NCBI RefSeq assembly: GCF_964204645.1
Contig: NW_027437431.1
Span: forward strand, 124,001 to 188,000
Reading direction: 5' to 3'
Origin: Tubulanus polymorphus
Lineage: Eukaryota; Animalia; Nemertea
DNA length: 64,000 bases
This document shows positions 1 to 52,315 of the stretch, piece after piece. Made by a program: the position numbers and the translations under genes. Each line of letters begins with the position of its first letter. Position 1 is the first letter of the stretch. The notes beneath the pieces are model-generated. The model made no database searches. It saw nothing but the letters and a program-made list of their open reading frames with translations, and was not told where the DNA came from.

Positions 1-2
1 AT

Positions 3-893
3 CAGACATTTTTGGACAGTGCTTCGGGTGTGAACGGTGTAGGTGCGAGACTAACGTCGAGTGTATTCAGAGCAAAACGGGCGTTATTTCCAACAATGGC
101 GGAAGAACCGGCATTAAAAAGATCAAAGAGAACGGCGGAAACGGGGAGCGAAGAAGGGAACGCCCAACAAATGATGACTCACATGACGGAAAAGCCGTCA
201 CTACACTATAAGAGCGTGTTAATACATAGAGGTTACCTAACGTTTACGAATTGGGATCCGGACCAGGCGTACGGAGCATTCGGAAGAAAAGCGAAGATTT
301 ACTGTTCGGGAATGAGAACGTTTAACTTCGGATTAAAAGAAAGAGAAGGATGGAGAAGATTTCCAGCCAGCATGGATACCATAGGGATGTGGGATCAATT
401 CAAAGTGACTTCGGGTAAAATAACGTTATACCCCATAGCGAGCGAAAGCGCGGTAAGCTCTGATTCGAACGCGTTCCAAGATCCGATAGTATGGTTAAAG
501 ACGGCAGCCGATTGGGACTTGAAAGTGAAAGACTCGGCCGCCAATACTCACCAGGGATCGCCGTACGCCGATATAAATTTATTAACTCAAAAGCAAAGCT
601 ACAGGCAATACGAATTAGGTCGGGGATGCGTTAGCATGGGATTACCCATGTCGACCATAAGAACCGAAATACAAGACACGAGTGACCCGACAGACGTTAC
701 CAGATCGGTGAATATCGGGGATAACTCGGCGTGGTTAGACGGAGCGTACCGCGATCATTGGCAATCAGCCGCGCTCATTATGCAAATGTTAGTGTACAAC
801 GATTCGATACACGCGGATTTAAACACGCCCCATACAGAAATTATCGTTCCAGCGGAAGTGGAGTTTACGATGATTCATAGAAACAGAGTATAA
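3..893 (+). CDS. Capsid protein, copy 1 (5'-truncated by window edge)
   Basis: Identical to the C-terminal part of the 360-aa ORF in later copies. Confidence 0.85.
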   Translation, partial: QTFLDSASGVNGVGARLTSSVFRAKRALFPTMAEEPALKRSKRTAETGSEEGNAQQMMTHMTEKPSLHYKSVLIHRGYLTFTNWDPDQAYGAFGRKAKIYCSGMRTFNFGLKEREGWRRFPASMDTIGMWDQFKVTSGKITLYPIASESAVSSDSNAFQDPIVWLKTAADWDLKVKDSAANTHQGSPYADINLLTQKQSYRQYELGRGCVSMGLPMSTIRTEIQDTSDPTDVTRSVNIGDNSAWLDGAYRDHWQSAALIMQMLVYNDSIHADLNTPHTEIIVPAEVEFTMIHRNRV

Positions 894-894
894 T

Positions 895-1203
895 ATGATA
901 ATAACTTTCCTATTCTTGGCATCCGGTTTCCTACACGAGTACAAGTGGCACGTATATACTAAACGTATCATGAGTAGAACGCAACGATTCATGAAAATAA
1001 GAGACGAAGTGGCGAACGAGTGGGTCATCAAACACGACGTCAACGAAAATCGGGTACTAAGGGAACAACACATTACAGAAGTAGCGAAAAGGATATTCTA
1101 CTACCGGGAAAAACAATGGGAACTAAGTCGAGAAACTGGTCGTTCACAACCGACAATCGAGCAGAAGTCTGCCTCGAAAGTCAAATCGGAACGTCAACAG
1201 TAA
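895..1203 (+). CDS. Small accessory ORF (102 aa, or 77 aa from ATG 970) overlapping the Rep 5' end; repeated every 3406 bp (4301, 7707 ... 48579)
   Basis: ATG lies 1 nt after the capsid stop and the ORF fills the cap-rep gap. Charged, helical-looking sequence with no recognisable motif. Intact in all 15 copies, but the copies are near-identical so this is weak evidence. Confidence 0.45.
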   Translation: MIITFLFLASGFLHEYKWHVYTKRIMSRTQRFMKIRDEVANEWVIKHDVNENRVLREQHITEVAKRIFYYREKQWELSRETGRSQPTIEQKSASKVKSERQQ

Positions 1204-2519
1204 CCGTACACATAGGTCCGCAAGAAGATCCGGACGGTTACGCGCACGGAGTAATAATAACGTTAGCCAAAGGTACGCAACGACCGTTGAAACAGAGCGA
1301 AAACGCGATTAGACAACTGTTACACTCGCTAGGCATTAGATTAGTTAACGACTACATCAAACCGACGGAAAAATTAGGCGCCTACATTCAATACATGTAC
1401 AAAGAAGCCGACAAAATACCGGAAGAATTACGAGGTCACTTGGAGGTGAAAAACTCGAAAACGAACGACGACTTTTTCGGCCAAAAGATAAACGCGTTAT
1501 ACGCGGAATACCAACAAAGACCGGGACTAGCCGATTGGACGGCGAGAATAGTGAAGGAGTTCGGTTACAACGTACCCGAACTGAAAGTGAAAAGATCGTT
1601 TAAAAATTGGCCGGTAAGGGTAAAAGATATTACGAGAAACGCGGGTGACTTTGCGTTGAAAATGACGGACATAACAGAGCCGAAATTGACGCCGGAAATG
1701 GGAGTAGAAATTATAACGAAATGCCTGGATAACGTTCAATCGGCGATGTGGGATGGTAAACATATAAATAAACGTGACCTGCTGGTAATATTGGTGAACG
1801 CGGCGATCGAGGGAGGTACGAGTAAAATCAGAAACGCGCCTCATATAATATTTTACGGAGATGCCGGGTCTGGTAAATCGATGTTGGCTAAATTATTGTT
1901 CCCGGATTCGATTACGAGCCAAATGCCGACGGATTCGGAAGGCGTAGGAGCGTGCGAGATGGGAGGAGGACAACGTATATTCAAAGTCGACGACGCCAGC
2001 GACGCTTTTTGGCACAACTCGGGGTTGTTGTCGATGATACTCGCGATGTACCAGTCCACCTGGGAGGCAAAAGTACATTCTAGTAAACAAAGTAACCCGC
2101 CGTGTATGACGGTAATTACGACGAATTGTAAGAATCCGTTAGAGAAGTTCGCCTCTACAGTAGCTTTGGAAGCTGTGGAAAGGAGATTCTTGTCGGTGTA
2201 TTTCAAAGGTAAAGCAGATTTGGGAAACGTAGTTTACGACATTACGCCGGGCGTATGCGAAGAAATATTAGAAATAATAGTTAACGAAATTAGACAAGGT
2301 AGATATCTGGACAACCAAGTCCACTTGGACGACTGGGAAACGGATGATGACGTGGTGATACCGTTCGAAAAAGAAAGAAACTTCATCGAAGCGTACCACG
2401 TAGGTCACATGTCGGACGCGATGCATCAGAATATGGAGGAAAGGTTAAAACGTAAACGTAAAGAAGAAGACGATACGAATGAAACTCTTAAGTTCGCTAA
2501 ACGCGGGGAAATCCTGTAG
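1116..2519 (+). CDS. rep: Replication initiator protein (HUH endonuclease + SF3 helicase), copy 1
   Basis: First ATG (1116, ACAATGG Kozak context) gives 467 aa. RCR motif I SRNWSFT, motif II-like GYAHG, motif III YIQYMYK, Walker A GDAGSGKS, Walker B FKVDD, motif C VITTN, Arg finger ERRF, C-terminal KRKRK NLS. The ORF track starts at GTG 1020. Confidence 0.9.
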   Translation: MGTKSRNWSFTTDNRAEVCLESQIGTSTVTVHIGPQEDPDGYAHGVIITLAKGTQRPLKQSENAIRQLLHSLGIRLVNDYIKPTEKLGAYIQYMYKEADKIPEELRGHLEVKNSKTNDDFFGQKINALYAEYQQRPGLADWTARIVKEFGYNVPELKVKRSFKNWPVRVKDITRNAGDFALKMTDITEPKLTPEMGVEIITKCLDNVQSAMWDGKHINKRDLLVILVNAAIEGGTSKIRNAPHIIFYGDAGSGKSMLAKLLFPDSITSQMPTDSEGVGACEMGGGQRIFKVDDASDAFWHNSGLLSMILAMYQSTWEAKVHSSKQSNPPCMTVITTNCKNPLEKFASTVALEAVERRFLSVYFKGKADLGNVVYDITPGVCEEILEIIVNEIRQGRYLDNQVHLDDWETDDDVVIPFEKERNFIEAYHVGHMSDAMHQNMEERLKRKRKEEDDTNETLKFAKRGEIL

Positions 2520-2530
2520 TTGGCAATGTA

Positions 2531-2536
2531 AATAAA
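2531..2536 (+). terminator. Polyadenylation signal AATAAA after rep (repeated in each unit)
   Basis: AATAAA begins 12 nt downstream of the rep stop codon. Confidence 0.6.
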
Positions 2537-2576
2537 TCTATAAATAGAATTCTATAAATTTCTCAATTCGTTACTA

Positions 2577-2690
2577 CCAGTGGACCCGCAGACCCGCGGA
2601 CCCACTGGCTGTTCGTTTTTCATGGTCTACCCCCCCTTATATATATAATAAGGAAAGAGAAGGAGGGTCCGCGGGTCCGCGGGTCTGCGG
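2577..2690. promoter_or_regulatory. Candidate replication origin/promoter: inverted GC-rich iterons flanking a TATA-rich stem-loop (each unit)
   Basis: Perfect 18-bp inverted repeat CCGCAGACCCGCGGACCC (2586-2603) / GGGTCCGCGGGTCTGCGG (2673-2690), built of 8-bp GACCCGCR units. Central CCTTAT-ATATATA-ATAAGG stem-loop (2635-2653). Additional CCAGTGG/CCACTGG stem (2577-2608). Confidence 0.6.
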
Positions 2691-2774
2691 TATTCTCTAA
2701 ACCGAGAATCGAAAAGTTAATGAAACTAGGTCGGAAAGATAACAAATTATTATTCAATATATCCTAAAGCTTCT

Positions 2775-2824
2775 ACGAGGTTGGTCACGCGCTCGCTACG
2801 CTCGCCAGCGTGACACAACCTCGT
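2775..2824. promoter_or_regulatory. 16-bp-stem hairpin with GCTC-repeat loop (each unit)
   Basis: ACGAGGTTG-GTCACGC pairs with GCGTGAC-A-CAACCTCGT (one bulge). Loop is GCTCGCTACGCTCGCCA. Confidence 0.6.
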
Positions 2825-3216
2825 GGACGCTCCAAAGATAATGAGTATGTGCTTGATAATGAGTGAATTAATTGGGAACCCTATAGCGGGTAAAAGGTAA
2901 GAAGTAGAAATTATAGGGTTAGGGGTTATCATTATACTCGGATGCCCACAGCCCGTGGTGGTCTGTGACAGTGGAGGTTAGTTAAAGTTCGAGGCGTGTG
3001 ACTAGTCGGGGGGAATAACATAGGCGGCTACGCCGCGATAGTTAGTCGGCAAGGTCGGCTGCGCCTCCGGCGGTACAGATTACATCTGAGTGTATTAGTC
3101 TACCAACGGAAGCCCAAACCCTAAATAATATTAGTCGGAAAAATCTGAGTTAGAGGGTCGCAACCGGTTCAAACAATTTAACATCTCATACAGGTGACTC
3201 GTACTTTTAGTATCAA

Positions 3217-4299
3217 ATGCCATCGTTGAAACGGAGGCGAAACGGATTTACATTGCCCGGTTTACCACATTGCGGTCCATTCAACGATATATCCAGTTAC
3301 AAAAGCGAAGGAATAGACGAAGTGTGCCGTATTCACGACAAAGAGTACGGAGAACTGCAAGAGAAATACGGTAAATGGGCTCCGTACTTCCAGTACAATT
3401 CAGCGGATCAGACATTTTTGGACAGTGCTTCGGGTGTGAACGGTGTAGGTGCGAGACTAACGTCGAGTGTATTCAGAGCAAAACGGGCGTTATTTCCAAC
3501 AATGGCGGAAGAACCGGCATTAAAAAGATCAAAGAGAACGGCGGAAACGGGGAGCGAAGAAGGGAACGCCCAACAAATGATGACTCACATGACGGAAAAG
3601 CCGTCACTACACTATAAGAGCGTGTTAATACATAGAGGTTACCTAACGTTTACGAATTGGGATCCGGACCAGGCGTACGGAGCATTCGGAAGAAAAGCGA
3701 AGATTTACTGTTCGGGAATGAGAACGTTTAACTTCGGATTAAAAGAAAGAGAAGGATGGAGAAGATTTCCAGCCAGCATGGATACCATAGGGATGTGGGA
3801 TCAATTCAAAGTGACTTCGGGTAAAATAACGTTATACCCCATAGCGAGCGAAAGCGCGGTAAGCTCTGATTCGAACGCGTTCCAAGATCCGATAGTATGG
3901 TTAAAGACGGCAGCCGATTGGGACTTGAAAGTGAAAGACTCGGCCGCCAATACTCACCAGGGATCGCCGTACGCCGATATAAATTTATTAACTCAAAAGC
4001 AAAGCTACAGGCAATACGAATTAGGTCGGGGATGCGTTAGCATGGGATTACCCATGTCGACCATAAGAACCGAAATACAAGACACGAGTGACCCGACAGA
4101 CGTTACCAGATCGGTGAATATCGGGGATAACTCGGCGTGGTTAGACGGAGCGTACCGCGATCATTGGCAATCAGCCGCGCTCATTATGCAAATGTTAGTG
4201 TACAACGATTCGATACACGCGGATTTAAACACGCCCCATACAGAAATTATCGTTCCAGCGGAAGTGGAGTTTACGATGATTCATAGAAACAGAGTATAA
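3217..4299 (+). CDS. Capsid protein with N-terminal parvovirus-type phospholipase A2 (VP1u-like), copy 2
   Basis: LPGLPHCGPFN (Ca-binding loop), DEVCRIHDKEY (catalytic HD), PYFQYNSADQTF and VFRAKR follow the parvoviral VP1u PLA2 pattern. Internal strong-Kozak ATG at 3502 (MAEEPALKRSKR) gives a 265-aa product with WDQFKVTSGKITLYP, resembling the conserved strand of CRESS/circovirus-like jelly-roll capsids. Confidence 0.88.
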   Translation: MPSLKRRRNGFTLPGLPHCGPFNDISSYKSEGIDEVCRIHDKEYGELQEKYGKWAPYFQYNSADQTFLDSASGVNGVGARLTSSVFRAKRALFPTMAEEPALKRSKRTAETGSEEGNAQQMMTHMTEKPSLHYKSVLIHRGYLTFTNWDPDQAYGAFGRKAKIYCSGMRTFNFGLKEREGWRRFPASMDTIGMWDQFKVTSGKITLYPIASESAVSSDSNAFQDPIVWLKTAADWDLKVKDSAANTHQGSPYADINLLTQKQSYRQYELGRGCVSMGLPMSTIRTEIQDTSDPTDVTRSVNIGDNSAWLDGAYRDHWQSAALIMQMLVYNDSIHADLNTPHTEIIVPAEVEFTMIHRNRV

Positions 4300-4521
4300 T
4301 ATGATAATAACTTTCCTATTCTTGGCATCCGGTTTCCTACACGAGTACAAGTGGCACGTATATACTAAACGTATCATGAGTAGAACGCAACGATTCATGA
4401 AAATAAGAGACGAAGTGGCGAACGAGTGGGTCATCAAACACGACGTCAACGAAAATCGGGTACTAAGGGAACAACACATTACAGAAGTAGCGAAAAGGAT
4501 ATTCTACTACCGGGAAAAACA

Positions 4522-5925
4522 ATGGGAACTAAGTCGAGAAACTGGTCGTTCACAACCGACAATCGAGCAGAAGTCTGCCTCGAAAGTCAAATCGGAACGT
4601 CAACAGTAACCGTACACATAGGTCCGCAAGAAGATCCGGACGGTTACGCGCACGGAGTAATAATAACGTTAGCCAAAGGTACGCAACGACCGTTGAAACA
4701 GAGCGAAAACGCGATTAGACAACTGTTACACTCGCTAGGCATTAGATTAGTTAACGACTACATCAAACCGACGGAAAAATTAGGCGCCTACATTCAATAC
4801 ATGTACAAAGAAGCCGACAAAATACCGGAAGAATTACGAGGTCACTTGGAGGTGAAAAACTCGAAAACGAACGACGACTTTTTCGGCCAAAAGATAAACG
4901 CGTTATACGCGGAATACCAACAAAGACCGGGACTAGCCGATTGGACGGCGAGAATAGTGAAGGAGTTCGGTTACAACGTACCCGAACTGAAAGTGAAAAG
5001 ATCGTTTAAAAATTGGCCGGTAAGGGTAAAAGATATTACGAGAAACGCGGGTGACTTTGCGTTGAAAATGACGGACATAACAGAGCCGAAATTGACGCCG
5101 GAAATGGGAGTAGAAATTATAACGAAATGCCTGGATAACGTTCAATCGGCGATGTGGGATGGTAAACATATAAATAAACGTGACCTGCTGGTAATATTGG
5201 TGAACGCGGCGATCGAGGGAGGTACGAGTAAAATCAGAAACGCGCCTCATATAATATTTTACGGAGATGCCGGGTCTGGTAAATCGATGTTGGCTAAATT
5301 ATTGTTCCCGGATTCGATTACGAGCCAAATGCCGACGGATTCGGAAGGCGTAGGAGCGTGCGAGATGGGAGGAGGACAACGTATATTCAAAGTCGACGAC
5401 GCCAGCGACGCTTTTTGGCACAACTCGGGGTTGTTGTCGATGATACTCGCGATGTACCAGTCCACCTGGGAGGCAAAAGTACATTCTAGTAAACAAAGTA
5501 ACCCGCCGTGTATGACGGTAATTACGACGAATTGTAAGAATCCGTTAGAGAAGTTCGCCTCTACAGTAGCTTTGGAAGCTGTGGAAAGGAGATTCTTGTC
5601 GGTGTATTTCAAAGGTAAAGCAGATTTGGGAAACGTAGTTTACGACATTACGCCGGGCGTATGCGAAGAAATATTAGAAATAATAGTTAACGAAATTAGA
5701 CAAGGTAGATATCTGGACAACCAAGTCCACTTGGACGACTGGGAAACGGATGATGACGTGGTGATACCGTTCGAAAAAGAAAGAAACTTCATCGAAGCGT
5801 ACCACGTAGGTCACATGTCGGACGCGATGCATCAGAATATGGAGGAAAGGTTAAAACGTAAACGTAAAGAAGAAGACGATACGAATGAAACTCTTAAGTT
5901 CGCTAAACGCGGGGAAATCCTGTAG
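4522..5925 (+). CDS. rep: Rep, copy 2
   Basis: Protein identical to copy 1. Confidence 0.9.
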   Translation: MGTKSRNWSFTTDNRAEVCLESQIGTSTVTVHIGPQEDPDGYAHGVIITLAKGTQRPLKQSENAIRQLLHSLGIRLVNDYIKPTEKLGAYIQYMYKEADKIPEELRGHLEVKNSKTNDDFFGQKINALYAEYQQRPGLADWTARIVKEFGYNVPELKVKRSFKNWPVRVKDITRNAGDFALKMTDITEPKLTPEMGVEIITKCLDNVQSAMWDGKHINKRDLLVILVNAAIEGGTSKIRNAPHIIFYGDAGSGKSMLAKLLFPDSITSQMPTDSEGVGACEMGGGQRIFKVDDASDAFWHNSGLLSMILAMYQSTWEAKVHSSKQSNPPCMTVITTNCKNPLEKFASTVALEAVERRFLSVYFKGKADLGNVVYDITPGVCEEILEIIVNEIRQGRYLDNQVHLDDWETDDDVVIPFEKERNFIEAYHVGHMSDAMHQNMEERLKRKRKEEDDTNETLKFAKRGEIL

Positions 5926-6622
5926 TTGGCAATGTAAATAAATCTATAAATAGAATTCTATAAATTTCTCAATTCGTTACTACCAGTGGACCCGCAGACC
6001 CGCGGACCCACTGGCTGTTCGTTTTTCATGGTCTACCCCCCCTTATATATATAATAAGGAAAGAGAAGGAGGGTCCGCGGGTCCGCGGGTCTGCGGTATT
6101 CTCTAAACCGAGAATCGAAAAGTTAATGAAACTAGGTCGGAAAGATAACAAATTATTATTCAATATATCCTAAAGCTTCTACGAGGTTGGTCACGCGCTC
6201 GCTACGCTCGCCAGCGTGACACAACCTCGTGGACGCTCCAAAGATAATGAGTATGTGCTTGATAATGAGTGAATTAATTGGGAACCCTATAGCGGGTAAA
6301 AGGTAAGAAGTAGAAATTATAGGGTTAGGGGTTATCATTATACTCGGATGCCCACAGCCCGTGGTGGTCTGTGACAGTGGAGGTTAGTTAAAGTTCGAGG
6401 CGTGTGACTAGTCGGGGGGAATAACATAGGCGGCTACGCCGCGATAGTTAGTCGGCAAGGTCGGCTGCGCCTCCGGCGGTACAGATTACATCTGAGTGTA
6501 TTAGTCTACCAACGGAAGCCCAAACCCTAAATAATATTAGTCGGAAAAATCTGAGTTAGAGGGTCGCAACCGGTTCAAACAATTTAACATCTCATACAGG
6601 TGACTCGTACTTTTAGTATCAA

Positions 6623-7705
6623 ATGCCATCGTTGAAACGGAGGCGAAACGGATTTACATTGCCCGGTTTACCACATTGCGGTCCATTCAACGATATATCC
6701 AGTTACAAAAGCGAAGGAATAGACGAAGTGTGCCGTATTCACGACAAAGAGTACGGAGAACTGCAAGAGAAATACGGTAAATGGGCTCCGTACTTCCAGT
6801 ACAATTCAGCGGATCAGACATTTTTGGACAGTGCTTCGGGTGTGAACGGTGTAGGTGCGAGACTAACGTCGAGTGTATTCAGAGCAAAACGGGCGTTATT
6901 TCCAACAATGGCGGAAGAACCGGCATTAAAAAGATCAAAGAGAACGGCGGAAACGGGGAGCGAAGAAGGGAACGCCCAACAAATGATGACTCACATGACG
7001 GAAAAGCCGTCACTACACTATAAGAGCGTGTTAATACATAGAGGTTACCTAACGTTTACGAATTGGGATCCGGACCAGGCGTACGGAGCATTCGGAAGAA
7101 AAGCGAAGATTTACTGTTCGGGAATGAGAACGTTTAACTTCGGATTAAAAGAAAGAGAAGGATGGAGAAGATTTCCAGCCAGCATGGATACCATAGGGAT
7201 GTGGGATCAATTCAAAGTGACTTCGGGTAAAATAACGTTATACCCCATAGCGAGCGAAAGCGCGGTAAGCTCTGATTCGAACGCGTTCCAAGATCCGATA
7301 GTATGGTTAAAGACGGCAGCCGATTGGGACCTGAAAGTGAAAGACTCGGCCGCCAATACTCACCAGGGATCGCCGTACGCCGATATAAATTTATTAACTC
7401 AAAAGCAAAGCTACAGGCAATACGAATTAGGTCGGGGATGCGTTAGCATGGGATTACCCATGTCGACCATAAGAACCGAAATACAAGACACGAGTGACCC
7501 GACAGACGTTACCAGATCGGTGAATATCGGGGATAACTCGGCGTGGTTAGACGGAGCGTACCGCGATCATTGGCAATCAGCCGCGCTCATTATGCAAATG
7601 TTAGTGTACAACGATTCGATACACGCGGATTTAAACACGCCCCATACAGAAATTATCGTTCCAGCGGAAGTGGAGTTTACGATGATTCATAGAAACAGAG
7701 TATAA
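6623..7705 (+). CDS. PLA2-capsid protein, copy 3
   Basis: Identical protein; synonymous T>C at 7331. Confidence 0.88.
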   Translation: MPSLKRRRNGFTLPGLPHCGPFNDISSYKSEGIDEVCRIHDKEYGELQEKYGKWAPYFQYNSADQTFLDSASGVNGVGARLTSSVFRAKRALFPTMAEEPALKRSKRTAETGSEEGNAQQMMTHMTEKPSLHYKSVLIHRGYLTFTNWDPDQAYGAFGRKAKIYCSGMRTFNFGLKEREGWRRFPASMDTIGMWDQFKVTSGKITLYPIASESAVSSDSNAFQDPIVWLKTAADWDLKVKDSAANTHQGSPYADINLLTQKQSYRQYELGRGCVSMGLPMSTIRTEIQDTSDPTDVTRSVNIGDNSAWLDGAYRDHWQSAALIMQMLVYNDSIHADLNTPHTEIIVPAEVEFTMIHRNRV

Positions 7706-7927
7706 TATGATAATAACTTTCCTATTCTTGGCATCCGGTTTCCTACACGAGTACAAGTGGCACGTATATACTAAACGTATCATGAGTAGAACGCAACGAT
7801 TCATGAAAATAAGAGACGAAGTGGCGAACGAGTGGGTCATCAAACACGACGTCAACGAAAATCGGGTACTAAGGGAACAACACATTACAGAAGTAGCGAA
7901 AAGGATATTCTACTACCGGGAAAAACA

Positions 7928-9331
7928 ATGGGAACTAAGTCGAGAAACTGGTCGTTCACAACCGACAATCGAGCAGAAGTCTGCCTCGAAAGTCAAATCG
8001 GAACGTCAACAGTAACCGTACACATAGGTCCGCAAGAAGATCCGGACGGTTACGCGCACGGAGTAATAATAACGTTAGCCAAAGGTACGCAACGACCGTT
8101 GAAACAGAGCGAAAACGCGATTAGACAACTGTTACACTCGCTAGGCATTAGATTAGTTAACGACTACATCAAACCGACGGAAAAATTAGGCGCCTACATT
8201 CAATACATGTACAAAGAAGCCGACAAAATACCGGAAGAATTACGAGGTCACTTGGAGGTGAAAAACTCGAAAACGAACGACGACTTTTTCGGCCAAAAGA
8301 TAAACGCGTTATACGCGGAATACCAACAAAGACCGGGACTAGCCGATTGGACGGCGAGAATAGTGAAGGAGTTCGGTTACAACGTACCCGAACTGAAAGT
8401 GAAAAGATCGTTTAAAAATTGGCCGGTAAGGGTAAAAGATATTACGAGAAACGCGGGTGACTTTGCGTTGAAAATGACGGACATAACAGAGCCGAAATTG
8501 ACGCCGGAAATGGGAGTAGAAATTATAACGAAATGCCTGGATAACGTTCAATCGGCGATGTGGGATGGTAAACATATAAATAAACGTGACCTGCTGGTAA
8601 TATTGGTGAACGCGGCGATCGAGGGAGGTACGAGTAAAATCAGAAACGCGCCTCATATAATATTTTACGGAGATGCCGGGTCTGGTAAATCGATGTTGGC
8701 TAAATTATTGTTCCCGGATTCGATTACGAGCCAAATGCCGACGGATTCGGAAGGCGTAGGAGCGTGCGAGATGGGAGGAGGACAACGTATATTCAAAGTC
8801 GACGACGCCAGCGACGCTTTTTGGCACAACTCGGGGTTGTTGTCGATGATACTCGCGATGTACCAGTCCACCTGGGAGGCAAAAGTACATTCTAGTAAAC
8901 AAAGTAACCCGCCGTGTATGACGGTAATTACGACGAATTGTAAGAATCCGTTAGAGAAGTTCGCCTCTACAGTAGCTTTGGAAGCTGTGGAAAGGAGATT
9001 CTTGTCGGTGTATTTCAAAGGTAAAGCAGATTTGGGAAACGTAGTTTACGACATTACGCCGGGCGTATGCGAAGAAATATTAGAAATAATAGTTAACGAA
9101 ATTAGACAAGGTAGATATCTGGACAACCAAGTCCACTTGGACGACTGGGAAACGGATGATGACGTGGTGATACCGTTCGAAAAAGAAAGAAACTTCATCG
9201 AAGCGTACCACGTAGGTCACATGTCGGACGCGATGCATCAGAATATGGAGGAAAGGTTAAAACGTAAACGTAAAGAAGAAGACGATACGAATGAAACTCT
9301 TAAGTTCGCTAAACGCGGGGAAATCCTGTAG
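7928..9331 (+). CDS. rep: Rep, copy 3
   Basis: Identical protein. Confidence 0.9.
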   Translation: MGTKSRNWSFTTDNRAEVCLESQIGTSTVTVHIGPQEDPDGYAHGVIITLAKGTQRPLKQSENAIRQLLHSLGIRLVNDYIKPTEKLGAYIQYMYKEADKIPEELRGHLEVKNSKTNDDFFGQKINALYAEYQQRPGLADWTARIVKEFGYNVPELKVKRSFKNWPVRVKDITRNAGDFALKMTDITEPKLTPEMGVEIITKCLDNVQSAMWDGKHINKRDLLVILVNAAIEGGTSKIRNAPHIIFYGDAGSGKSMLAKLLFPDSITSQMPTDSEGVGACEMGGGQRIFKVDDASDAFWHNSGLLSMILAMYQSTWEAKVHSSKQSNPPCMTVITTNCKNPLEKFASTVALEAVERRFLSVYFKGKADLGNVVYDITPGVCEEILEIIVNEIRQGRYLDNQVHLDDWETDDDVVIPFEKERNFIEAYHVGHMSDAMHQNMEERLKRKRKEEDDTNETLKFAKRGEIL

Positions 9332-10028
9332 TTGGCAATGTAAATAAATCTATAAATAGAATTCTATAAATTTCTCAATTCGTTACTACCAGTGGACCCG
9401 CAGACCCGCGGACCCACTGGCTGTTCGTTTTTCATGGTCTACCCCCCCTTATATATATAATAAGGAAAGAGAAGGAGGGTCCGCGGGTCCGCGGGTCTGC
9501 GGTATTCTCTAAACCGAGAATCGAAAAGTTAATGAAACTAGGTCGGAAAGATAACAAATTATTATTCAATATATCCTAAAGCTTCTACGAGGTTGGTCAC
9601 GCGCTCGCTACGCTCGCCAGCGTGACACAACCTCGTGGACGCTCCAAAGATAATGAGTATGTGCTTGATAATGAGTGAATTAATTGGGAACCCTATAGCG
9701 GGTAAAAGGTAAGAAGTAGAAATTATAGGGTTAGGGGTTATCATTATACTCGGATGCCCACAGCCCGTGGTGGTCTGTGACAGTGGAGGTTAGTTAAAGT
9801 TCGAGGCGTGTGACTAGTCGGGGGGAATAACATAGGCGGCTACGCCGCGATAGTTAGTCGGCAAGGTCGGCTGCGCCTCCGGCGGTACAGATTACATCTG
9901 AGTGTATTAGTCTACCAACGGAAGCCCAAACCCTAAATAATATTAGTCGGAAAAATCTGAGTTAGAGGGTCGCAACCGGTTCAAACAATTTAACATCTCA
10001 TACAGGTGACTCGTACTTTTAGTATCAA

Positions 10029-11111
10029 ATGCCATCGTTGAAACGGAGGCGAAACGGATTTACATTGCCCGGTTTACCACATTGCGGTCCATTCAACGAT
10101 ATATCCAGTTACAAAAGCGAAGGAATAGACGAAGTGTGCCGTATTCACGACAAAGAGTACGGAGAACTGCAAGAGAAATACGGTAAATGGGCTCCGTACT
10201 TCCAGTACAATTCAGCGGATCAGACATTTTTGGACAGTGCTTCGGGTGTGAACGGTGTAGGTGCGAGACTAACGTCGAGTGTATTCAGAGCAAAACGGGC
10301 GTTATTTCCAACAATGGCGGAAGAACCGGCATTAAAAAGATCAAAGAGAACGGCGGAAACGGGGAGCGAAGAAGGGAACGCCCAACAAATGATGACTCAC
10401 ATGACGGAAAAGCCGTCACTACACTATAAGAGCGTGTTAATACATAGAGGTTACCTAACGTTTACGAATTGGGATCCGGACCAGGCGTACGGAGCATTCG
10501 GAAGAAAAGCGAAGATTTACTGTTCGGGAATGAGAACGTTTAACTTCGGATTAAAAGAAAGAGAAGGATGGAGAAGATTTCCAGCCAGCATGGATACCAT
10601 AGGGATGTGGGATCAATTCAAAGTGACTTCGGGTAAAATAACGTTATACCCCATAGCGAGCGAAAGCGCGGTAAGCTCTGATTCGAACGCGTTCCAAGAT
10701 CCGATAGTATGGTTAAAGACGGCAGCCGATTGGGACTTGAAAGTGAAAGACTCGGCCGCCAATACTCACCAGGGATCGCCGTACGCCGATATAAATTTAT
10801 TAACTCAAAAGCAAAGCTACAGGCAATACGAATTAGGTCGGGGATGCGTTAGCATGGGATTACCCATGTCGACCATAAGAACCGAAATACAAGACACGAG
10901 TGACCCGACAGACGTTACCAGATCGGTGAATATCGGGGATAACTCGGCGTGGTTAGACGGAGCGTACCGCGATCATTGGCAATCAGCCGCGCTCATTATG
11001 CAAATGTTAGTGTACAACGATTCGATACACGCGGATTTAAACACGCCCCATACAGAAATTATCGTTCCAGCGGAAGTGGAGTTTACGATGATTCATAGAA
11101 ACAGAGTATAA
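10029..11111 (+). CDS. PLA2-capsid protein, copy 4
   Basis: Identical protein. Confidence 0.88.
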   Translation: MPSLKRRRNGFTLPGLPHCGPFNDISSYKSEGIDEVCRIHDKEYGELQEKYGKWAPYFQYNSADQTFLDSASGVNGVGARLTSSVFRAKRALFPTMAEEPALKRSKRTAETGSEEGNAQQMMTHMTEKPSLHYKSVLIHRGYLTFTNWDPDQAYGAFGRKAKIYCSGMRTFNFGLKEREGWRRFPASMDTIGMWDQFKVTSGKITLYPIASESAVSSDSNAFQDPIVWLKTAADWDLKVKDSAANTHQGSPYADINLLTQKQSYRQYELGRGCVSMGLPMSTIRTEIQDTSDPTDVTRSVNIGDNSAWLDGAYRDHWQSAALIMQMLVYNDSIHADLNTPHTEIIVPAEVEFTMIHRNRV

Positions 11112-11333
11112 TATGATAATAACTTTCCTATTCTTGGCATCCGGTTTCCTACACGAGTACAAGTGGCACGTATATACTAAACGTATCATGAGTAGAACGC
11201 AACGATTCATGAAAATAAGAGACGAAGTGGCGAACGAGTGGGTCATCAAACACGACGTCAACGAAAATCGGGTACTAAGGGAACAACACATTACAGAAGT
11301 AGCGAAAAGGATATTCTACTACCGGGAAAAACA

Positions 11334-12737
11334 ATGGGAACTAAGTCGAGAAACTGGTCGTTCACAACCGACAATCGAGCAGAAGTCTGCCTCGAAAGTC
11401 AAATCGGAACGTCAACAGTAACCGTACACATAGGTCCGCAAGAAGATCCGGACGGTTACGCGCACGGAGTAATAATAACGTTAGCCAAAGGTACGCAACG
11501 ACCGTTGAAACAGAGCGAAAACGCGATTAGACAACTGTTACACTCGCTAGGCATTAGATTAGTTAACGACTACATCAAACCGACGGAAAAATTAGGCGCC
11601 TACATTCAATACATGTACAAAGAAGCCGACAAAATACCGGAAGAATTACGAGGTCACTTGGAGGTGAAAAACTCGAAAACGAACGACGACTTTTTCGGAC
11701 AAAAGATAAACGCGTTATACGCGGAATACCAACAAAGACCGGGACTAGCCGATTGGACGGCGAGAATAGTGAAGGAGTTCGGTTACAACGTACCCGAACT
11801 GAAAGTGAAAAGATCGTTTAAAAATTGGCCGGTAAGGGTAAAAGATATTACGAGAAACGCGGGTGACTTTGCGTTGAAAATGACGGACATAACAGAGCCG
11901 AAATTGACGCCGGAAATGGGAGTAGAAATTATAACGAAATGCCTGGATAACGTTCAATCGGCGATGTGGGATGGTAAACATATAAATAAACGTGACCTGC
12001 TGGTAATATTGGTGAACGCGGCGATCGAGGGAGGTACGAGTAAAATCAGAAACGCGCCTCATATAATATTTTACGGAGATGCCGGGTCTGGTAAATCGAT
12101 GTTGGCTAAATTATTGTTCCCGGATTCGATTACGAGCCAAATGCCGACGGATTCGGAAGGCGTAGGAGCGTGCGAGATGGGAGGAGGACAACGTATATTC
12201 AAAGTCGACGACGCCAGCGACGCTTTTTGGCACAACTCGGGGTTGTTGTCGATGATACTCGCGATGTACCAGTCCACCTGGGAGGCAAAAGTACATTCTA
12301 GTAAACAAAGTAACCCGCCGTGTATGACGGTAATTACGACGAATTGTAAGAATCCGTTAGAGAAGTTCGCCTCTACAGTAGCTTTGGAAGCTGTGGAAAG
12401 GAGATTCTTGTCGGTGTATTTCAAAGGTAAAGCAGATTTGGGAAACGTAGTTTACGACATTACGCCGGGCGTATGCGAAGAAATATTAGAAATAATAGTT
12501 AACGAAATTAGACAAGGTAGATATCTGGACAACCAAGTCCACTTGGACGACTGGGAAACGGATGATGACGTGGTGATACCGTTCGAAAAAGAAAGAAACT
12601 TCATCGAAGCGTACCACGTAGGTCACATGTCGGACGCGATGCATCAGAATATGGAGGAAAGGTTAAAACGTAAACGTAAAGAAGAAGACGATACGAATGA
12701 AACTCTTAAGTTCGCTAAACGCGGGGAAATCCTGTAG
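11334..12737 (+). CDS. rep: Rep, copy 4
   Basis: Identical protein; synonymous C>A at 11699. Confidence 0.9.
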   Translation: MGTKSRNWSFTTDNRAEVCLESQIGTSTVTVHIGPQEDPDGYAHGVIITLAKGTQRPLKQSENAIRQLLHSLGIRLVNDYIKPTEKLGAYIQYMYKEADKIPEELRGHLEVKNSKTNDDFFGQKINALYAEYQQRPGLADWTARIVKEFGYNVPELKVKRSFKNWPVRVKDITRNAGDFALKMTDITEPKLTPEMGVEIITKCLDNVQSAMWDGKHINKRDLLVILVNAAIEGGTSKIRNAPHIIFYGDAGSGKSMLAKLLFPDSITSQMPTDSEGVGACEMGGGQRIFKVDDASDAFWHNSGLLSMILAMYQSTWEAKVHSSKQSNPPCMTVITTNCKNPLEKFASTVALEAVERRFLSVYFKGKADLGNVVYDITPGVCEEILEIIVNEIRQGRYLDNQVHLDDWETDDDVVIPFEKERNFIEAYHVGHMSDAMHQNMEERLKRKRKEEDDTNETLKFAKRGEIL

Positions 12738-13434
12738 TTGGCAATGTAAATAAATCTATAAATAGAATTCTATAAATTTCTCAATTCGTTACTACCAGTG
12801 GACCCGCAGACCCGCGGACCCACTGGCTGTTCGTTTTTCATGGTCTACCCCCCCTTATATATATAATAAGGAAAGAGAAGGAGGGTCCGCGGGTCCGCGG
12901 GTCTGCGGTATTCTCTAAACCGAGAATCGAAAAGTTAATGAAACTAGGTCGGAAAGATAACAAATTATTATTCAATATATCCTAAAGCTTCTACGAGGTT
13001 GGTCACGCGCTCGCTACGCTCGCCAGCGTGACACAACCTCGTGGACGCTCCAAAGATAATGAGTATGTGCTTGATAATGAGTGAATTAATTGGGAACCCT
13101 ATAGCGGGTAAAAGGTAAGAAGTAGAAATTATAGGGTTAGGGGTTATCATTATACTCGGATGCCCACAGCCCGTGGTGGTCTGTGACAGTGGAGGTTAGT
13201 TAAAGTTCGAGGCGTGTGACTAGTCGGGGGGAATAACATAGGCGGCTACGCCGCGATAGTTAGTCGGCAAGGTCGGCTGCGCCTCCGGCGGTACAGATTA
13301 CATCTGAGTGTATTAGTCTACCAACGGAAGCCCAAACCCTAAATAATATTAGTCGGAAAAATCTGAGTTAGAGGGTCGCAACCGGTTCAAACAATTTAAC
13401 ATCTCATACAGGTGACTCGTACTTTTAGTATCAA

Positions 13435-14517
13435 ATGCCATCGTTGAAACGGAGGCGAAACGGATTTACATTGCCCGGTTTACCACATTGCGGTCCATTC
13501 AACGATATATCCAGTTACAAAAGCGAAGGAATAGACGAAGTGTGCCGTATTCACGACAAAGAGTACGGAGAACTGCAAGAGAAATACGGTAAATGGGCTC
13601 CGTACTTCCAGTACAATTCAGCGGATCAGACATTTTTGGACAGTGCTTCGGGTGTGAACGGTGTAGGTGCGAGACTAACGTCGAGTGTATTCAGAGCAAA
13701 ACGGGCGTTATTTCCAACAATGGCGGAAGAACCGGCATTAAAAAGATCAAAGAGAACGGCGGAAACGGGGAGCGAAGAAGGGAACGCCCAACAAATGATG
13801 ACTCACATGACGGAAAAGCCGTCACTACACTATAAGAGCGTGTTAATACATAGAGGTTACCTAACGTTTACGAATTGGGATCCGGACCAGGCGTACGGAG
13901 CATTCGGAAGAAAAGCGAAGATTTACTGTTCGGGAATGAGAACGTTTAACTTCGGATTAAAAGAAAGAGAAGGATGGAGAAGATTTCCAGCCAGCATGGA
14001 TACCATAGGGATGTGGGATCAATTCAAAGTGACTTCGGGTAAAATAACGTTATACCCCATAGCGAGCGAAAGCGCGGTAAGCTCTGATTCGAACGCGTTC
14101 CAAGATCCGATAGTATGGTTAAAGACGGCAGCCGATTGGGACTTGAAAGTGAAAGACTCGGCCGCCAATACTCACCAGGGATCGCCGTACGCCGATATAA
14201 ATTTATTAACTCAAAAGCAAAGCTACAGGCAATACGAATTAGGTCGGGGATGCGTTAGCATGGGATTACCCATGTCGACCATAAGAACCGAAATACAAGA
14301 CACGAGTGACCCGACAGACGTTACCAGATCGGTGAATATCGGGGATAACTCGGCGTGGTTAGACGGAGCGTACCGCGATCATTGGCAATCAGCCGCGCTC
14401 ATTATGCAAATGTTAGTGTACAACGATTCGATACACGCGGATTTAAACACGCCCCATACAGAAATTATCGTTCCAGCGGAAGTGGAGTTTACGATGATTC
14501 ATAGAAACAGAGTATAA
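13435..14517 (+). CDS. PLA2-capsid protein, copy 5
   Basis: Identical protein. Confidence 0.88.
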   Translation: MPSLKRRRNGFTLPGLPHCGPFNDISSYKSEGIDEVCRIHDKEYGELQEKYGKWAPYFQYNSADQTFLDSASGVNGVGARLTSSVFRAKRALFPTMAEEPALKRSKRTAETGSEEGNAQQMMTHMTEKPSLHYKSVLIHRGYLTFTNWDPDQAYGAFGRKAKIYCSGMRTFNFGLKEREGWRRFPASMDTIGMWDQFKVTSGKITLYPIASESAVSSDSNAFQDPIVWLKTAADWDLKVKDSAANTHQGSPYADINLLTQKQSYRQYELGRGCVSMGLPMSTIRTEIQDTSDPTDVTRSVNIGDNSAWLDGAYRDHWQSAALIMQMLVYNDSIHADLNTPHTEIIVPAEVEFTMIHRNRV

Positions 14518-14739
14518 TATGATAATAACTTTCCTATTCTTGGCATCCGGTTTCCTACACGAGTACAAGTGGCACGTATATACTAAACGTATCATGAGTA
14601 GAACGCAACGATTCATGAAAATAAGAGACGAAGTGGCGAACGAGTGGGTCATCAAACACGACGTCAACGAAAATCGGGTACTAAGGGAACAACACATTAC
14701 AGAAGTAGCGAAAAGGATATTCTACTACCGGGAAAAACA

Positions 14740-16143
14740 ATGGGAACTAAGTCGAGAAACTGGTCGTTCACAACCGACAATCGAGCAGAAGTCTGCCTCG
14801 AAAGTCAAATCGGAACGTCAACAGTAACCGTACACATAGGTCCGCAAGAAGATCCGGACGGTTACGCGCACGGAGTAATAATAACGTTAGCCAAAGGTAC
14901 GCAACGACCGTTGAAACAGAGCGAAAACGCGATTAGACAACTGTTACACTCGCTAGGCATTAGATTAGTTAACGACTACATCAAACCGACGGAAAAATTA
15001 GGCGCCTACATTCAATACATGTACAAAGAAGCCGACAAAATACCGGAAGAATTACGAGGTCACTTGGAGGTGAAAAACTCGAAAACGAACGACGACTTTT
15101 TCGGCCAAAAGATAAACGCGTTATACGCGGAATACCAACAAAGACCGGGACTAGCCGATTGGACGGCGAGAATAGTGAAGGAGTTCGGTTACAACGTACC
15201 CGAACTGAAAGTGAAAAGATCGTTTAAAAATTGGCCGGTAAGGGTAAAAGATATTACGAGAAACGCGGGTGACTTTGCGTTGAAAATGACGGACATAACA
15301 GAGCCGAAATTGACGCCGGAAATGGGAGTAGAAATTATAACGAAATGCCTGGATAACGTTCAATCGGCGATGTGGGATGGTAAACATATAAATAAACGTG
15401 ACCTGCTGGTAATATTGGTGAACGCGGCGATCGAGGGAGGTACGAGTAAAATCAGAAACGCGCCTCATATAATATTTTACGGAGATGCCGGGTCTGGTAA
15501 ATCGATGTTGGCTAAATTATTGTTCCCGGATTCGATTACGAGCCAAATGCCGACGGATTCGGAAGGCGTAGGAGCGTGCGAGATGGGAGGAGGACAACGT
15601 ATATTCAAAGTCGACGACGCCAGCGACGCTTTTTGGCACAACTCGGGGTTGTTGTCGATGATACTCGCGATGTACCAGTCCACCTGGGAGGCAAAAGTAC
15701 ATTCTAGTAAACAAAGTAACCCGCCGTGTATGACGGTAATTACGACGAATTGTAAGAATCCGTTAGAGAAGTTCGCCTCTACAGTAGCTTTGGAAGCTGT
15801 GGAAAGGAGATTCTTGTCGGTGTATTTCAAAGGTAAAGCAGATTTGGGAAACGTAGTTTACGACATTACGCCGGGCGTATGCGAAGAAATATTAGAAATA
15901 ATAGTTAACGAAATTAGACAAGGTAGATATCTGGACAACCAAGTCCACTTGGACGACTGGGAAACGGATGATGACGTGGTGATACCGTTCGAAAAAGAAA
16001 GAAACTTCATCGAAGCGTACCACGTAGGTCACATGTCGGACGCGATGCATCAGAATATGGAGGAAAGGTTAAAACGTAAACGTAAAGAAGAAGACGATAC
16101 GAATGAAACTCTTAAGTTCGCTAAACGCGGGGAAATCCTGTAG
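14740..16143 (+). CDS. rep: Rep, copy 5
   Basis: Identical protein. Confidence 0.9.
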   Translation: MGTKSRNWSFTTDNRAEVCLESQIGTSTVTVHIGPQEDPDGYAHGVIITLAKGTQRPLKQSENAIRQLLHSLGIRLVNDYIKPTEKLGAYIQYMYKEADKIPEELRGHLEVKNSKTNDDFFGQKINALYAEYQQRPGLADWTARIVKEFGYNVPELKVKRSFKNWPVRVKDITRNAGDFALKMTDITEPKLTPEMGVEIITKCLDNVQSAMWDGKHINKRDLLVILVNAAIEGGTSKIRNAPHIIFYGDAGSGKSMLAKLLFPDSITSQMPTDSEGVGACEMGGGQRIFKVDDASDAFWHNSGLLSMILAMYQSTWEAKVHSSKQSNPPCMTVITTNCKNPLEKFASTVALEAVERRFLSVYFKGKADLGNVVYDITPGVCEEILEIIVNEIRQGRYLDNQVHLDDWETDDDVVIPFEKERNFIEAYHVGHMSDAMHQNMEERLKRKRKEEDDTNETLKFAKRGEIL

Positions 16144-16840
16144 TTGGCAATGTAAATAAATCTATAAATAGAATTCTATAAATTTCTCAATTCGTTACTA
16201 CCAGTGGACCCGCAGACCCGCGGACCCACTGGCTGTTCGTTTTTCATGGTCTACCCCCCCTTATATATATAATAAGGAAAGAGAAGGAGGGTCCGCGGGT
16301 CCGCGGGTCTGCGGTATTCTCTAAACCGAGAATCGAAAAGTTAATGAAACTAGGTCGGAAAGATAACAAATTATTATTCAATATATCCTAAAGCTTCTAC
16401 GAGGTTGGTCACGCGCTCGCTACGCTCGCCAGCGTGACACAACCTCGTGGACGCTCCAAAGATAATGAGTATGTGCTTGATAATGAGTGAATTAATTGGG
16501 AACCCTATAGCGGGTAAAAGGTAAGAAGTAGAAATTATAGGGTTAGGGGTTATCATTATACTCGGATGCCCACAGCCCGTGGTGGTCTGTGACAGTGGAG
16601 GTTAGTTAAAGTTCGAGGCGTGTGACTAGTCGGGGGGAATAACATAGGCGGCTACGCCGCGATAGTTAGTCGGCAAGGTCGGCTGCGCCTCCGGCGGTAC
16701 AGATTACATCTGAGTGTATTAGTCTACCAACGGAAGCCCAAACCCTAAATAATATTAGTCGGAAAAATCTGAGTTAGAGGGTCGCAACCGGTTCAAACAA
16801 TTTAACATCTCATACAGGTGACTCGTACTTTTAGTATCAA

Positions 16841-17923
16841 ATGCCATCGTTGAAACGGAGGCGAAACGGATTTACATTGCCCGGTTTACCACATTGCGGT
16901 CCATTCAACGATATATCCAGTTACAAAAGCGAAGGAATAGACGAAGTGTGCCGTATTCACGACAAAGAGTACGGAGAACTGCAAGAGAAATACGGTAAAT
17001 GGGCTCCGTACTTCCAGTACAATTCAGCGGATCAGACATTTTTGGACAGTGCTTCGGGTGTGAACGGTGTAGGTGCGAGACTAACGTCGAGTGTATTCAG
17101 AGCAAAACGGGCGTTATTTCCAACAATGGCGGAAGAACCGGCATTAAAAAGATCAAAGAGAACGGCGGAAACGGGGAGCGAAGAAGGGAACGCCCAACAA
17201 ATGATGACTCACATGACGGAAAAGCCGTCACTACACTATAAGAGCGTGTTAATACATAGAGGTTACCTAACGTTTACGAATTGGGATCCGGACCAGGCGT
17301 ACGGAGCATTCGGAAGAAAAGCGAAGATTTACTGTTCGGGAATGAGAACGTTTAACTTCGGATTAAAAGAAAGAGAAGGATGGAGAAGATTTCCAGCCAG
17401 CATGGATACCATAGGGATGTGGGATCAATTCAAAGTGACTTCGGGTAAAATAACGTTATACCCCATAGCGAGCGAAAGCGCGGTAAGCTCTGATTCGAAC
17501 GCGTTCCAAGATCCGATAGTATGGTTAAAGACGGCAGCCGATTGGGACTTGAAAGTGAAAGACTCGGCCGCCAATACTCACCAGGGATCGCCGTACGCCG
17601 ATATAAATTTATTAACTCAAAAGCAAAGCTACAGGCAATACGAATTAGGTCGGGGATGCGTTAGCATGGGATTACCCATGTCGACCATAAGAACCGAAAT
17701 ACAAGACACGAGTGACCCGACAGACGTTACCAGATCGGTGAATATCGGGGATAACTCGGCGTGGTTAGACGGAGCGTACCGCGATCATTGGCAATCAGCC
17801 GCGCTCATTATGCAAATGTTAGTGTACAACGATTCGATACACGCGGATTTAAACACGCCCCATACAGAAATTATCGTTCCAGCGGAAGTGGAGTTTACGA
17901 TGATTCATAGAAACAGAGTATAA
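16841..17923 (+). CDS. PLA2-capsid protein, copy 6
   Basis: Identical protein. Confidence 0.88.
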   Translation: MPSLKRRRNGFTLPGLPHCGPFNDISSYKSEGIDEVCRIHDKEYGELQEKYGKWAPYFQYNSADQTFLDSASGVNGVGARLTSSVFRAKRALFPTMAEEPALKRSKRTAETGSEEGNAQQMMTHMTEKPSLHYKSVLIHRGYLTFTNWDPDQAYGAFGRKAKIYCSGMRTFNFGLKEREGWRRFPASMDTIGMWDQFKVTSGKITLYPIASESAVSSDSNAFQDPIVWLKTAADWDLKVKDSAANTHQGSPYADINLLTQKQSYRQYELGRGCVSMGLPMSTIRTEIQDTSDPTDVTRSVNIGDNSAWLDGAYRDHWQSAALIMQMLVYNDSIHADLNTPHTEIIVPAEVEFTMIHRNRV

Positions 17924-18145
17924 TATGATAATAACTTTCCTATTCTTGGCATCCGGTTTCCTACACGAGTACAAGTGGCACGTATATACTAAACGTATCA
18001 TGAGTAGAACGCAACGATTCATGAAAATAAGAGACGAAGTGGCGAACGAGTGGGTCATCAAACACGACGTCAACGAAAATCGGGTACTAAGGGAACAACA
18101 CATTACAGAAGTAGCGAAAAGGATATTCTACTACCGGGAAAAACA

Positions 18146-19549: not shown

Positions 19550-20246
19550 TTGGCAATGTAAATAAATCTATAAATAGAATTCTATAAATTTCTCAATTCG
19601 TTACTACCAGTGGACCCGCAGACCCGCGGACCCACTGGCTGTTCGTTTTTCATGGTCTACCCCCCCTTATATATATAATAAGGAAAGAGAAGGAGGGTCC
19701 GCGGGTCCGCGGGTCTGCGGTATTCTCTAAACCGAGAATCGAAAAGTTAATGAAACTAGGTCGGAAAGATAACAAATTATTATTCAATATATCCTAAAGC
19801 TTCTACGAGGTTGGTCACGCGCTCGCTACGCTCGCCAGCGTGACACAACCTCGTGGACGCTCCAAAGATAATGAGTATGTGCTTGATAATGAGTGAATTA
19901 ATTGGGAACCCTATAGCGGGTAAAAGGTAAGAAGTAGAAATTATAGGGTTAGGGGTTATCATTATACTCGGATGCCCACAGCCCGTGGTGGTCTGTGACA
20001 GTGGAGGTTAGTTAAAGTTCGAGGCGTGTGACTAGTCGGGGGGAATAACATAGGCGGCTACGCCGCGATAGTTAGTCGGCAAGGTCGGCTGCGCCTCCGG
20101 CGGTACAGATTACATCTGAGTGTATTAGTCTACCAACGGAAGCCCAAACCCTAAATAATATTAGTCGGAAAAATCTGAGTTAGAGGGTCGCAACCGGTTC
20201 AAACAATTTAACATCTCATACAGGTGACTCGTACTTTTAGTATCAA

Positions 20247-21329: not shown

Positions 21330-21551
21330 TATGATAATAACTTTCCTATTCTTGGCATCCGGTTTCCTACACGAGTACAAGTGGCACGTATATACTAAAC
21401 GTATCATGAGTAGAACGCAACGATTCATGAAAATAAGAGACGAAGTGGCGAACGAGTGGGTCATCAAACACGACGTCAACGAAAATCGGGTACTAAGGGA
21501 ACAACACATTACAGAAGTAGCGAAAAGGATATTCTACTACCGGGAAAAACA

Positions 21552-51298: not shown

Positions 51299-51314
51299 TT
51301 ATTTTACATATTTT

Positions 51315-52265: not shown

Positions 52266-52315
52266 GATGTGTAACCAATGCCAACTTAGAGGAAGACCGC
52301 TCTGCGCACAAGCGC

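Follow-up and report, generated by a model that had tools for sequence, protein, structure and literature searches.

A capsid gene combining a parvovirus-type phospholipase A2 with a predicted circovirus-like shell in a tandem array of a putative unclassified ssDNA virus

Which kind of virus encodes a coat protein that begins with a phospholipase A2 (PLA2) of the parvovirus type and continues into a shell domain of CRESS size, and is this design new? The question is raised by an open reading frame in the stretch of DNA analysed here (64,000 nt; in the following, the window), which matches the description given in an initial annotation of the sequence (Table 1). The gene is present as 14 full copies within a tandem array. 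Each 3,406-bp unit of this array comprises the capsid gene, an ORF2 of 102 aa and a Rep of 467 aa, all located on the plus strand, plus 697 nt of non-coding DNA. It is rather likely that the gene encodes the capsid of an unclassified small ssDNA virus, in which a VP1/VP2-like arrangement is built on a circovirus-like shell and which works in the four steps outlined in the last section.

Table 1. Positions of the viral and host-type features in the window
Feature	Position	Strand	Basis or remark
Capsid gene, long form (predicted VP1, 360 aa)	3217..4299	+	second unit of the array
PLA2 domain, aa 10-89; HCGPF, HDxxY, two conserved Cys	3244..3483	+	Pfam PF08398, 44.2 bits; invariant columns of the alignment
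Predicted major capsid protein (VP2, 265 aa) from Met96; jelly-roll ~aa 130-360	3502..4299	+	start context, model
ORF2, 102 aa, no family	4301..4609	+	sequence, Pfam
Rep, 467 aa, divergent HUH-SF3	4522..5925	+	sequence, relatives' alignment, ESM Atlas
Imperfect inverted repeat, 21- and 18-nt arms, AT-rich core	5982..6099	.	downstream of the poly(A)-like signal of Rep at 5937
Strongest non-coding hairpin, candidate origin or terminus	6174..6237	.	-19.3 kcal/mol; 0/40 shuffles as low
Head-to-tail array, 3,406-bp unit, 14.8 copies, starts before the window	1..50430	+	sequence comparison
Junction of array and AT-rich DNA, equivalent to 6152, between two hairpins	50430..50431	.	2-nt microhomology
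Host-type flank; LTR-retroelement protease ORF, zinc-knuckle/esterase ORF	50431..64000	.	GC 30.5% vs 45.3% in the unit

The two parts of the capsid protein

The initial annotation had placed a parvovirus-type PLA2 at the N-terminus, and this was confirmed by the Pfam search, in which aa 10-89 matched PF08398 well above the cut-off (44.2 bits vs 23.9; E 2.4e-11). Presumably, HCGPF represents the calcium-loop-like and HDxxY the catalytic-type motif of this domain. In the PDB sequence search, the best 32 of 37 matches were parvoviral VP1 or capsid chains (best E 1.3e-12), which cover only the N-terminal ~115 aa of the 360-aa ORF.

The remainder of 265 aa stated in the annotation agrees with the count from Met96. 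The first ATG shows C at position -3 and is therefore in a weak context, whereas Met96 possesses a strong one (A at -3, G at +4); the stretch between the two contains a single out-of-frame ATG. A methionine close behind the PLA2 was present in all eight family proteins examined (8/8). In relatives (L003, L005, L007 and others), a +1-frame ORF of ~130 aa with a hydrophobic stretch overlaps the PLA2, which we take to be reminiscent of the overlapping X proteins of parvoviruses. In the window, no long +1 frame is open across the PLA2, in contrast to these relatives. The arm between Met96 and the shell (aa 96-130) carries 5 basic and 6 acidic residues and differs in this respect from the basic arms which are typical of most ssDNA virus families (PMC11945456).

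For the capsid, an AlphaFold model was obtained from an input alignment of 6 sequences, with a mean pLDDT of 55 and values of 55-77 in the strands. In this model, the PLA2 is helical and is connected by a linker of low confidence (aa 98-130) to a beta domain (aa 132-358); the segment WDQFKVTSGKITLYP was modelled as a helix followed by strand 195-206. When this model was compared to 48,161 solved chains with VIA-align, the capsid of a bat circovirus ranked first (Z 9.7, rmsd 4.2, 177 aligned), followed by the BFDV capsid (Z 8.7, rmsd 3.8, 157 aligned) and an anellovirus (Z 7.1), Z values of 8-10 being only modestly above the level of common folds. Foldseek against the PDB likewise listed BFDV first, at an E-value tied with that of a tombus-like capsid, and PCV2 next, with jelly-rolls of RNA viruses interspersed. 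Parvoviral chains were not among the listed matches of VIA-align or of Foldseek/PDB.

These results suggest that aa 130-360 form a single jelly-roll which is closest to circovirus capsids. The two-part anatomy of the capsid is real, and the fold assignment is a prediction from a model of moderate quality. The small circovirus-like jelly-roll of the annotation is in line with both searches of solved structures, which are led by circovirus capsids and start from a pLDDT-55 model. Structure prediction, which it had proposed as a check, gave a single predicted jelly-roll in this part of the protein, and sequence similarity to parvoviral shells was not detected. As predicted, the coat protein would join a parvovirus-type PLA2 to a circovirus-like shell.

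Rep, non-coding region and relatives

The nuclease part of Rep contains a motif I-like RNWSFT, a motif II in which one of the two usual histidines is missing (the relatives have both) and a motif III, YMYK. In the helicase part, Walker A (GDAGSGKS), Walker B (KVDD), motif C (VITTN) and an arginine-finger-like VERRF were recognized. These motifs align with those of the relatives and fit the published definitions (PMC6668415). A Pfam match to a Rep family (Viral_Rep, RNA_helicase or Parvo_NS1) was not obtained for the 467-aa protein, and sequence searches of the PDB yielded weak P-loop matches only. In the ESM Atlas, Rep reached 0.95-0.96 to HUH-SF3 clusters, comprising plasmid pCRESS-type, Cressdnaviricota, one Parvo_NS1 and unnamed clusters. 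Judged from its motifs and Atlas neighbours, Rep most probably is an HUH endonuclease fused to an SF3 helicase, a feature of the Cressdnaviricota. The structure model of Rep (pLDDT 35) was unusable and the fold search done with it uninformative, and both were set aside. ORF2 showed no detectable similarity to the middle ORF of the relatives, which occupies the same place.

A nonanucleotide at the tip of the origin stem-loop is a feature of the Circoviridae. A scan of both strands of the non-coding region (5926-6622) revealed near-matches only, none of them at the main hairpin, and no canonical nonanucleotide on a stem-loop. In the same region, the minus strand contains five GNA-triloop mini-hairpins, whereas the plus strand is devoid of them (mean of the shuffles 0.5; 0/500 shuffles reach 5); this excess was noticed by eye first and shuffle-tested afterwards. 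The bias suggests that the minus strand exists in single-stranded form. Furthermore, GGTTGG followed by GCTC-like repeats occurs at 6183-6212, inside the main hairpin, which presumably recalls the nick site and Rep-binding element of AAV; motifs of this kind occur frequently among small ssDNA viruses.

A search of 1.84 billion representatives with the capsid yielded 194 matches, of which 150 were listed, nearly all of them found via the PLA2. Iteration with the shell only recovered five of the 150 (P0016, P0003, P0005, P0008 and P0116). The closest shell relative, P0016 (26% over 233 columns), has no PLA2. In the metagenome scan, 15 of 401 candidate stretches were confirmed, and 13 of these (L002-L014, corresponding to 7 distinct copies at 97%) belong to the lineage of the window. 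A Rep match was found in 10 of the 13 loci, mostly with 26-29% identity (best E 7e-51), and the order capsid, middle ORF, Rep in eight of the 13; L002 and L004 are rearranged. Several loci are broken and L006 is flanked by an LTR retrotransposon, so the related loci look endogenous. The word-index protein search gave no match among the candidates for the capsid (0/575) or for Rep (0/7,997), and with the alignment of the capsid family only P0116 was retrieved (1/5,774). Scans of IMG/VR with Rep, the Rep alignment and P0003 as well as of GTDB genomes and plasmids revealed no locus.

Three of the relatives (L002, L011, L012) possess terminal palindromes of 250-280 nt to the right of Rep, the arms of which are diverged yet self-complementary, with an AAA/TTT tip. 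L008 has a left hairpin of ~210 nt, and an inverted repeat of 26-27 nt occurs inside both ends. Judged from these ends, the relatives look like linear genomes. In the window unit, no inverted repeat longer than 21 nt was found.

Array, junction and flank

The array contains seven variant sites, none of them a stop and one common to two adjacent copies. In none of the unit copies compared is any of the three ORFs interrupted by a stop. The greater part of the unit is contained in four sequencing runs (two samples, one study), from which the assembly may have been made. No RNA run was listed among the data sets containing the unit, which says nothing about expression. In run X1, the unit is a single self-closing contig with a depth of ~1,980, which fits a circle or an array equally well, and the same joint is present in X2; in both, head-to-tail is the sole joint of unit length. 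Run X5 (share 0.07), with only short low-depth contigs of the unit and of the host repeat, was left out. Beside the unit itself, X1, X2 and X6 contain patchy, diverged relatives of the unit over 47241-49800 (~85-90% identity, some with deletions). X6, of which ~12% was read, is a different sample with the same species label and has these diverged relatives only.

The initial annotation had described a circular CRESS-type virus. The CRESS-type part is consistent with the HUH-SF3 Rep. The genome itself may be circular or linear: the unit is arranged head-to-tail, and its nearest relatives possess long terminal palindromes, which are typical of linear genomes. It is possible, though doubtful, that the virus is linear with hairpin ends, like a parvovirus or oomyvirus, and that the array consists of end-joined genomes whose natural ends lie between the two hairpins. 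The right-end palindromes of L002, L011 and L012, the left hairpin of L008 and the inner inverted repeat point in this direction. So does the junction with the host, which falls into the ~75 nt between the two hairpins of the window, ~2% of the unit, a coincidence noticed post hoc. However, these hairpin-ended relatives are distant (Rep 26-29%), the unit has no comparable inverted repeat, no head-to-head junction occurs in the 14.8 copies, and X1 and X2 have no other unit-length joint than head-to-tail.

The flank resembles animal repeat DNA. The sequence struck by the array (50431-51700) is a repeat of high copy number, in which the minus-strand ORFs are degraded and Pfam matches were not found; by its motifs, it presumably resembles accessory genes of polintons or adintoviruses. 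Further downstream, a large fold-back is located at 53582-58213 (arms of 1,789 nt with ~6 mismatches, a 24-nt tandem repeat per arm), which contains small AT-rich ORFs, one with weak C2H2 zinc-finger matches, and a short hairpin near its centre; it might represent a mobile element of the fold-back type or have arisen as an artefact of assembly. An aspartyl-protease ORF of a retroelement follows at 58102-59097 on the minus strand. At 62526-63998 on the plus strand, a zinc-knuckle plus GDSL-esterase ORF was found, which we take to be of the LINE ORF1 type.

In X1, X3 and X4, no contig crosses the junction of virus and host. The exact flank runs upstream into non-viral sequence in X1, that is, into an intact empty site. 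Missing bridging contigs and an empty site would result from a heterozygous insertion and from a chimeric join alike, and Logan contigs drop rare branches. In view of the uninterrupted host site in the same sample, the array is only putatively integrated into a chromosome. The array might be non-chromosomal, i.e. a replicating or amplified viral concatemer which was joined to the host repeat via a chimeric molecule, but we regard this as unlikely. Such an origin would agree with the empty site and the unbridged junction, with the high copy number of the flanking repeat and with the depth of the unit in X1, ~1,980 in comparison to 56-66 for the exact flank contigs, although depth is not copy number. 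It is countered by the seven variant sites, which lie at most 15.4 kb apart, one of them shared by neighbours, and which would fit an array phased by long reads; their spacing mildly favours a real array. In addition, a heterozygous insertion also leaves an empty allele, rare branches are lost in Logan, and related elements are integrated elsewhere.

Place among known viruses and proposed working

The family Oomyviridae belongs to the order Lineavirales of the Cressdnaviricota, and its members were formerly known as PHV/NIH-CQV. It was created for parvo-like hybrid viruses, which combine a PLA2-containing capsid with a circovirus-like Rep (PMC13426907). Their genomes are linear and their hosts are thought to be stramenopiles (PMC12451638); according to PMC13141889, no host is confirmed and the family is known largely from reagent contamination. 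The window virus resembles the Oomyviridae in its PLA2-containing capsid and CRESS-type Rep (PMC13426907), and it has in common with the oomyvirus reference L017 a genome size of 3-4 kb and the location of both genes on the same strand. Unlike L017, in which Rep precedes the capsid and which has 82-nt terminal inverted repeats, the unit is capsid-first with a middle ORF. Its capsid has 360 aa instead of 450-520 aa, and its copies lie beside animal-type DNA, whereas stramenopiles are the likely hosts of oomyviruses (PMC12451638).

That the virus is a divergent member of the Oomyviridae is highly improbable. In the Foldseek search of BFVD, a parvo-like hybrid capsid was the best match (E 1.1e-14), followed mostly by small CRESS capsids, but with a TM of 0.25 and an rmsd of 24.6 this match probably rests on the shared two-domain layout. 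In the Atlas, the cluster nearest to the capsid consists of a Cressdnaviricota capsid with PLA2 (0.88), which is no more than a lead. L017 was the best, though weak, match of Rep among 140 reference loci (tblastn E 0.25; hhalign probability 75-78 over 36 columns around Walker A). In hhalign, the shell profile reached a probability of 0.04 against the 12 capsids of the oomyvirus group, to which the PHV capsid P0162 belongs, and of 0.18 against 13 parvoviral VPs; this test is blunt, as every pair between groups remained below 1, and shows distance only. When 115 sequences were clustered by their C-terminal parts (phmmer), five large groups resulted, and the window family was separate from those of the oomyviruses and the parvoviruses. 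Altogether, the window virus does not look like a member of the Oomyviridae. In the helicase tree (24 rows from 58), the window family formed its own long branch, flagged by a long-branch warning, in an unresolved star with thin CRESS sampling; star-like trees of SF3 domains have been reported likewise (PMC6668415).

With the Parvoviridae, the virus shares an N-terminal PLA2 homologous to that of the VP1u of Parvovirinae and Densovirinae, a likely VP1/VP2 arrangement with a second in-frame methionine, and a non-basic arm. Terminal hairpins, a feature of this family (PMC13426907), are present in the relatives L002, L008, L011 and L012. The Rep helicase aligned with Parvovirinae at hhalign probabilities of 46-58 over 85 columns, and the Parvo_NS1 cluster of the Atlas was reached at 0.95. 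Nevertheless, we consider it very unlikely that the virus is a parvovirus which has diverged strongly, with its capsid shrunken and its gene order reversed. The shell is predicted to be circovirus-like and has ~230 aa only, its matches among solved structures are led by circoviruses, its probability against the 13 VPs is as low as given above, and the unit is head-to-tail without long hairpins. Pfam matches to Parvo_coat or Parvo_NS1 were not found in the capsid and Rep of the window, and the nuclease region aligned weakly with CRESS motifs I and II, not with NS1 (hhalign).

The virus is similar to the Circoviridae in the best solved-structure match of its shell and in Rep motifs I-III plus SF3. 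In the Circoviridae, the genes of Rep and capsid lie on opposite strands, whereas all three ORFs of the window unit are on the plus strand. Further differences are the PLA2 in place of an arginine-rich arm, the size of 3.4 kb and the 467-aa Rep without a Viral_Rep or RNA_helicase match.

PLA2 was found on at least four other capsid groups, two circular CRESS contigs included. The latter (L001/L064 and L148) encode open frames of 523 and 550 aa which are led by PLA2; in the set of 90 loci screened, PLA2 capsids occurred in two, the set including some duplicates and the locus first found via its PLA2. L016 is an RNA-virus-like contig in which an RdRP_3 gene is followed by a PLA2-led ORF. In P0036 and P0060, PLA2 is fused to capsids with a tombusvirus-type S domain, and in P0097 to a weakly geminivirus-like capsid; P0039 looks alike, without such a match. 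Like the window capsid, L001/L064, L148 and L016 carry the PLA2 N-terminal to a non-parvoviral capsid, and the shell sequences are unrelated. They differ from the window unit in that L001 encodes a short Rep of canonical type on the other strand and L016 an RdRp. PLA2-capsid RNA viruses are on record (PMC7508674, PMC11903649), and among the dark-matter circles of Tisza et al. one cluster is listed as PLA2, without further detail (PMC7000223). The phospholipase of bacilladnaviruses was rejected as a parallel, as it is a PLA1 encoded by a separate gene (PMC13623192; PMC11903649).

The combination of a PLA2 with a non-parvoviral capsid, the central observation of the initial annotation, is not new: it has been described for the Oomyviridae (PMC13426907, PMC12451638), and it recurs in other CRESS-type and RNA-virus capsids. 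The undescribed lineage which it also suggested as a possibility is probable. The shell has no sequence similarity to oomyvirus or parvovirus capsids, and the only relatives of Rep, which look endogenous, show 26-29% identity. No description of this lineage was found in the open-access full texts searched. It is likely that PLA2 and shell were paired separately in the window lineage, and we are probably dealing with a known design that was reached in an unnamed family-level lineage.

For the unclassified virus with a VP1/VP2-like capsid, which we favour, the following working is proposed. First, ribosomes would mostly bypass the weak first ATG and start at Met96, the resulting 265-aa major protein would form a T=1 shell, and few copies of the 360-aa long form would be included per shell. 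Second, the PLA2 of the long form would be exposed in the endosome and breach the membrane; parvoviral PLA2 serves endosomal escape (PMC11945456, PMC11903649). Third, the HUH-SF3 Rep would nick and unwind the genome and probably also pump DNA into the capsid; packaging driven by a helicase is likelier than co-assembly by an arginine-rich arm, because the arm is not basic. Fourth, a circular double-stranded template, derived from a circular genome or from a linear one with joined ends, would be copied into the head-to-tail array, which may have recently entered the host repeat; head-to-tail copies imply such a template at some stage. Genome size would be no barrier: circoviruses hold ~2 kb at 1 nt/nm3 (PMC11945456), which implies that their cavity is near that of a densovirus, which holds 3.3 kb (PMC12115719). 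The host likely is an invertebrate. Points counted against this explanation are the weak capsid model (pLDDT 55, 6 sequences), the P0016 shell without PLA2, the single histidine of motif II, the missing stem-loop nonanucleotide, the palindromes of 210-280 nt in the relatives and the unbridged junction.

A more far-reaching reading, which taken as a whole we consider quite unlikely, is that the virus represents an undescribed lineage of family rank, comprising ssDNA viruses of animals and standing between the CRESS viruses and the parvoviruses. It would unite a circovirus-like shell, a VP1u-type PLA2, the VP1/VP2 strategy and a CRESS-like nuclease, with hairpin-ended linear members beside one multiplying head-to-tail. 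If true, this lineage would exemplify in living viruses the step from circular to linear genomes by which parvoviruses have been proposed to originate (PMC6668415), and one of its copies, intact and freshly amplified, would be tied to the genome of an animal. Hairpin-ended and head-to-tail members in one lineage would bear on the question how circular ssDNA genomes gave rise to linear ones.

The combination of a parvoviral entry enzyme with a capsid of CRESS size recurs among viruses and is not a first. The window lineage has copies beside animal-type DNA, whereas the Oomyviridae are without a confirmed host. A shell of 230 aa plus a VP1u is a minimal system for asking which features enable a capsid to conceal a phospholipase and to bring it into action.
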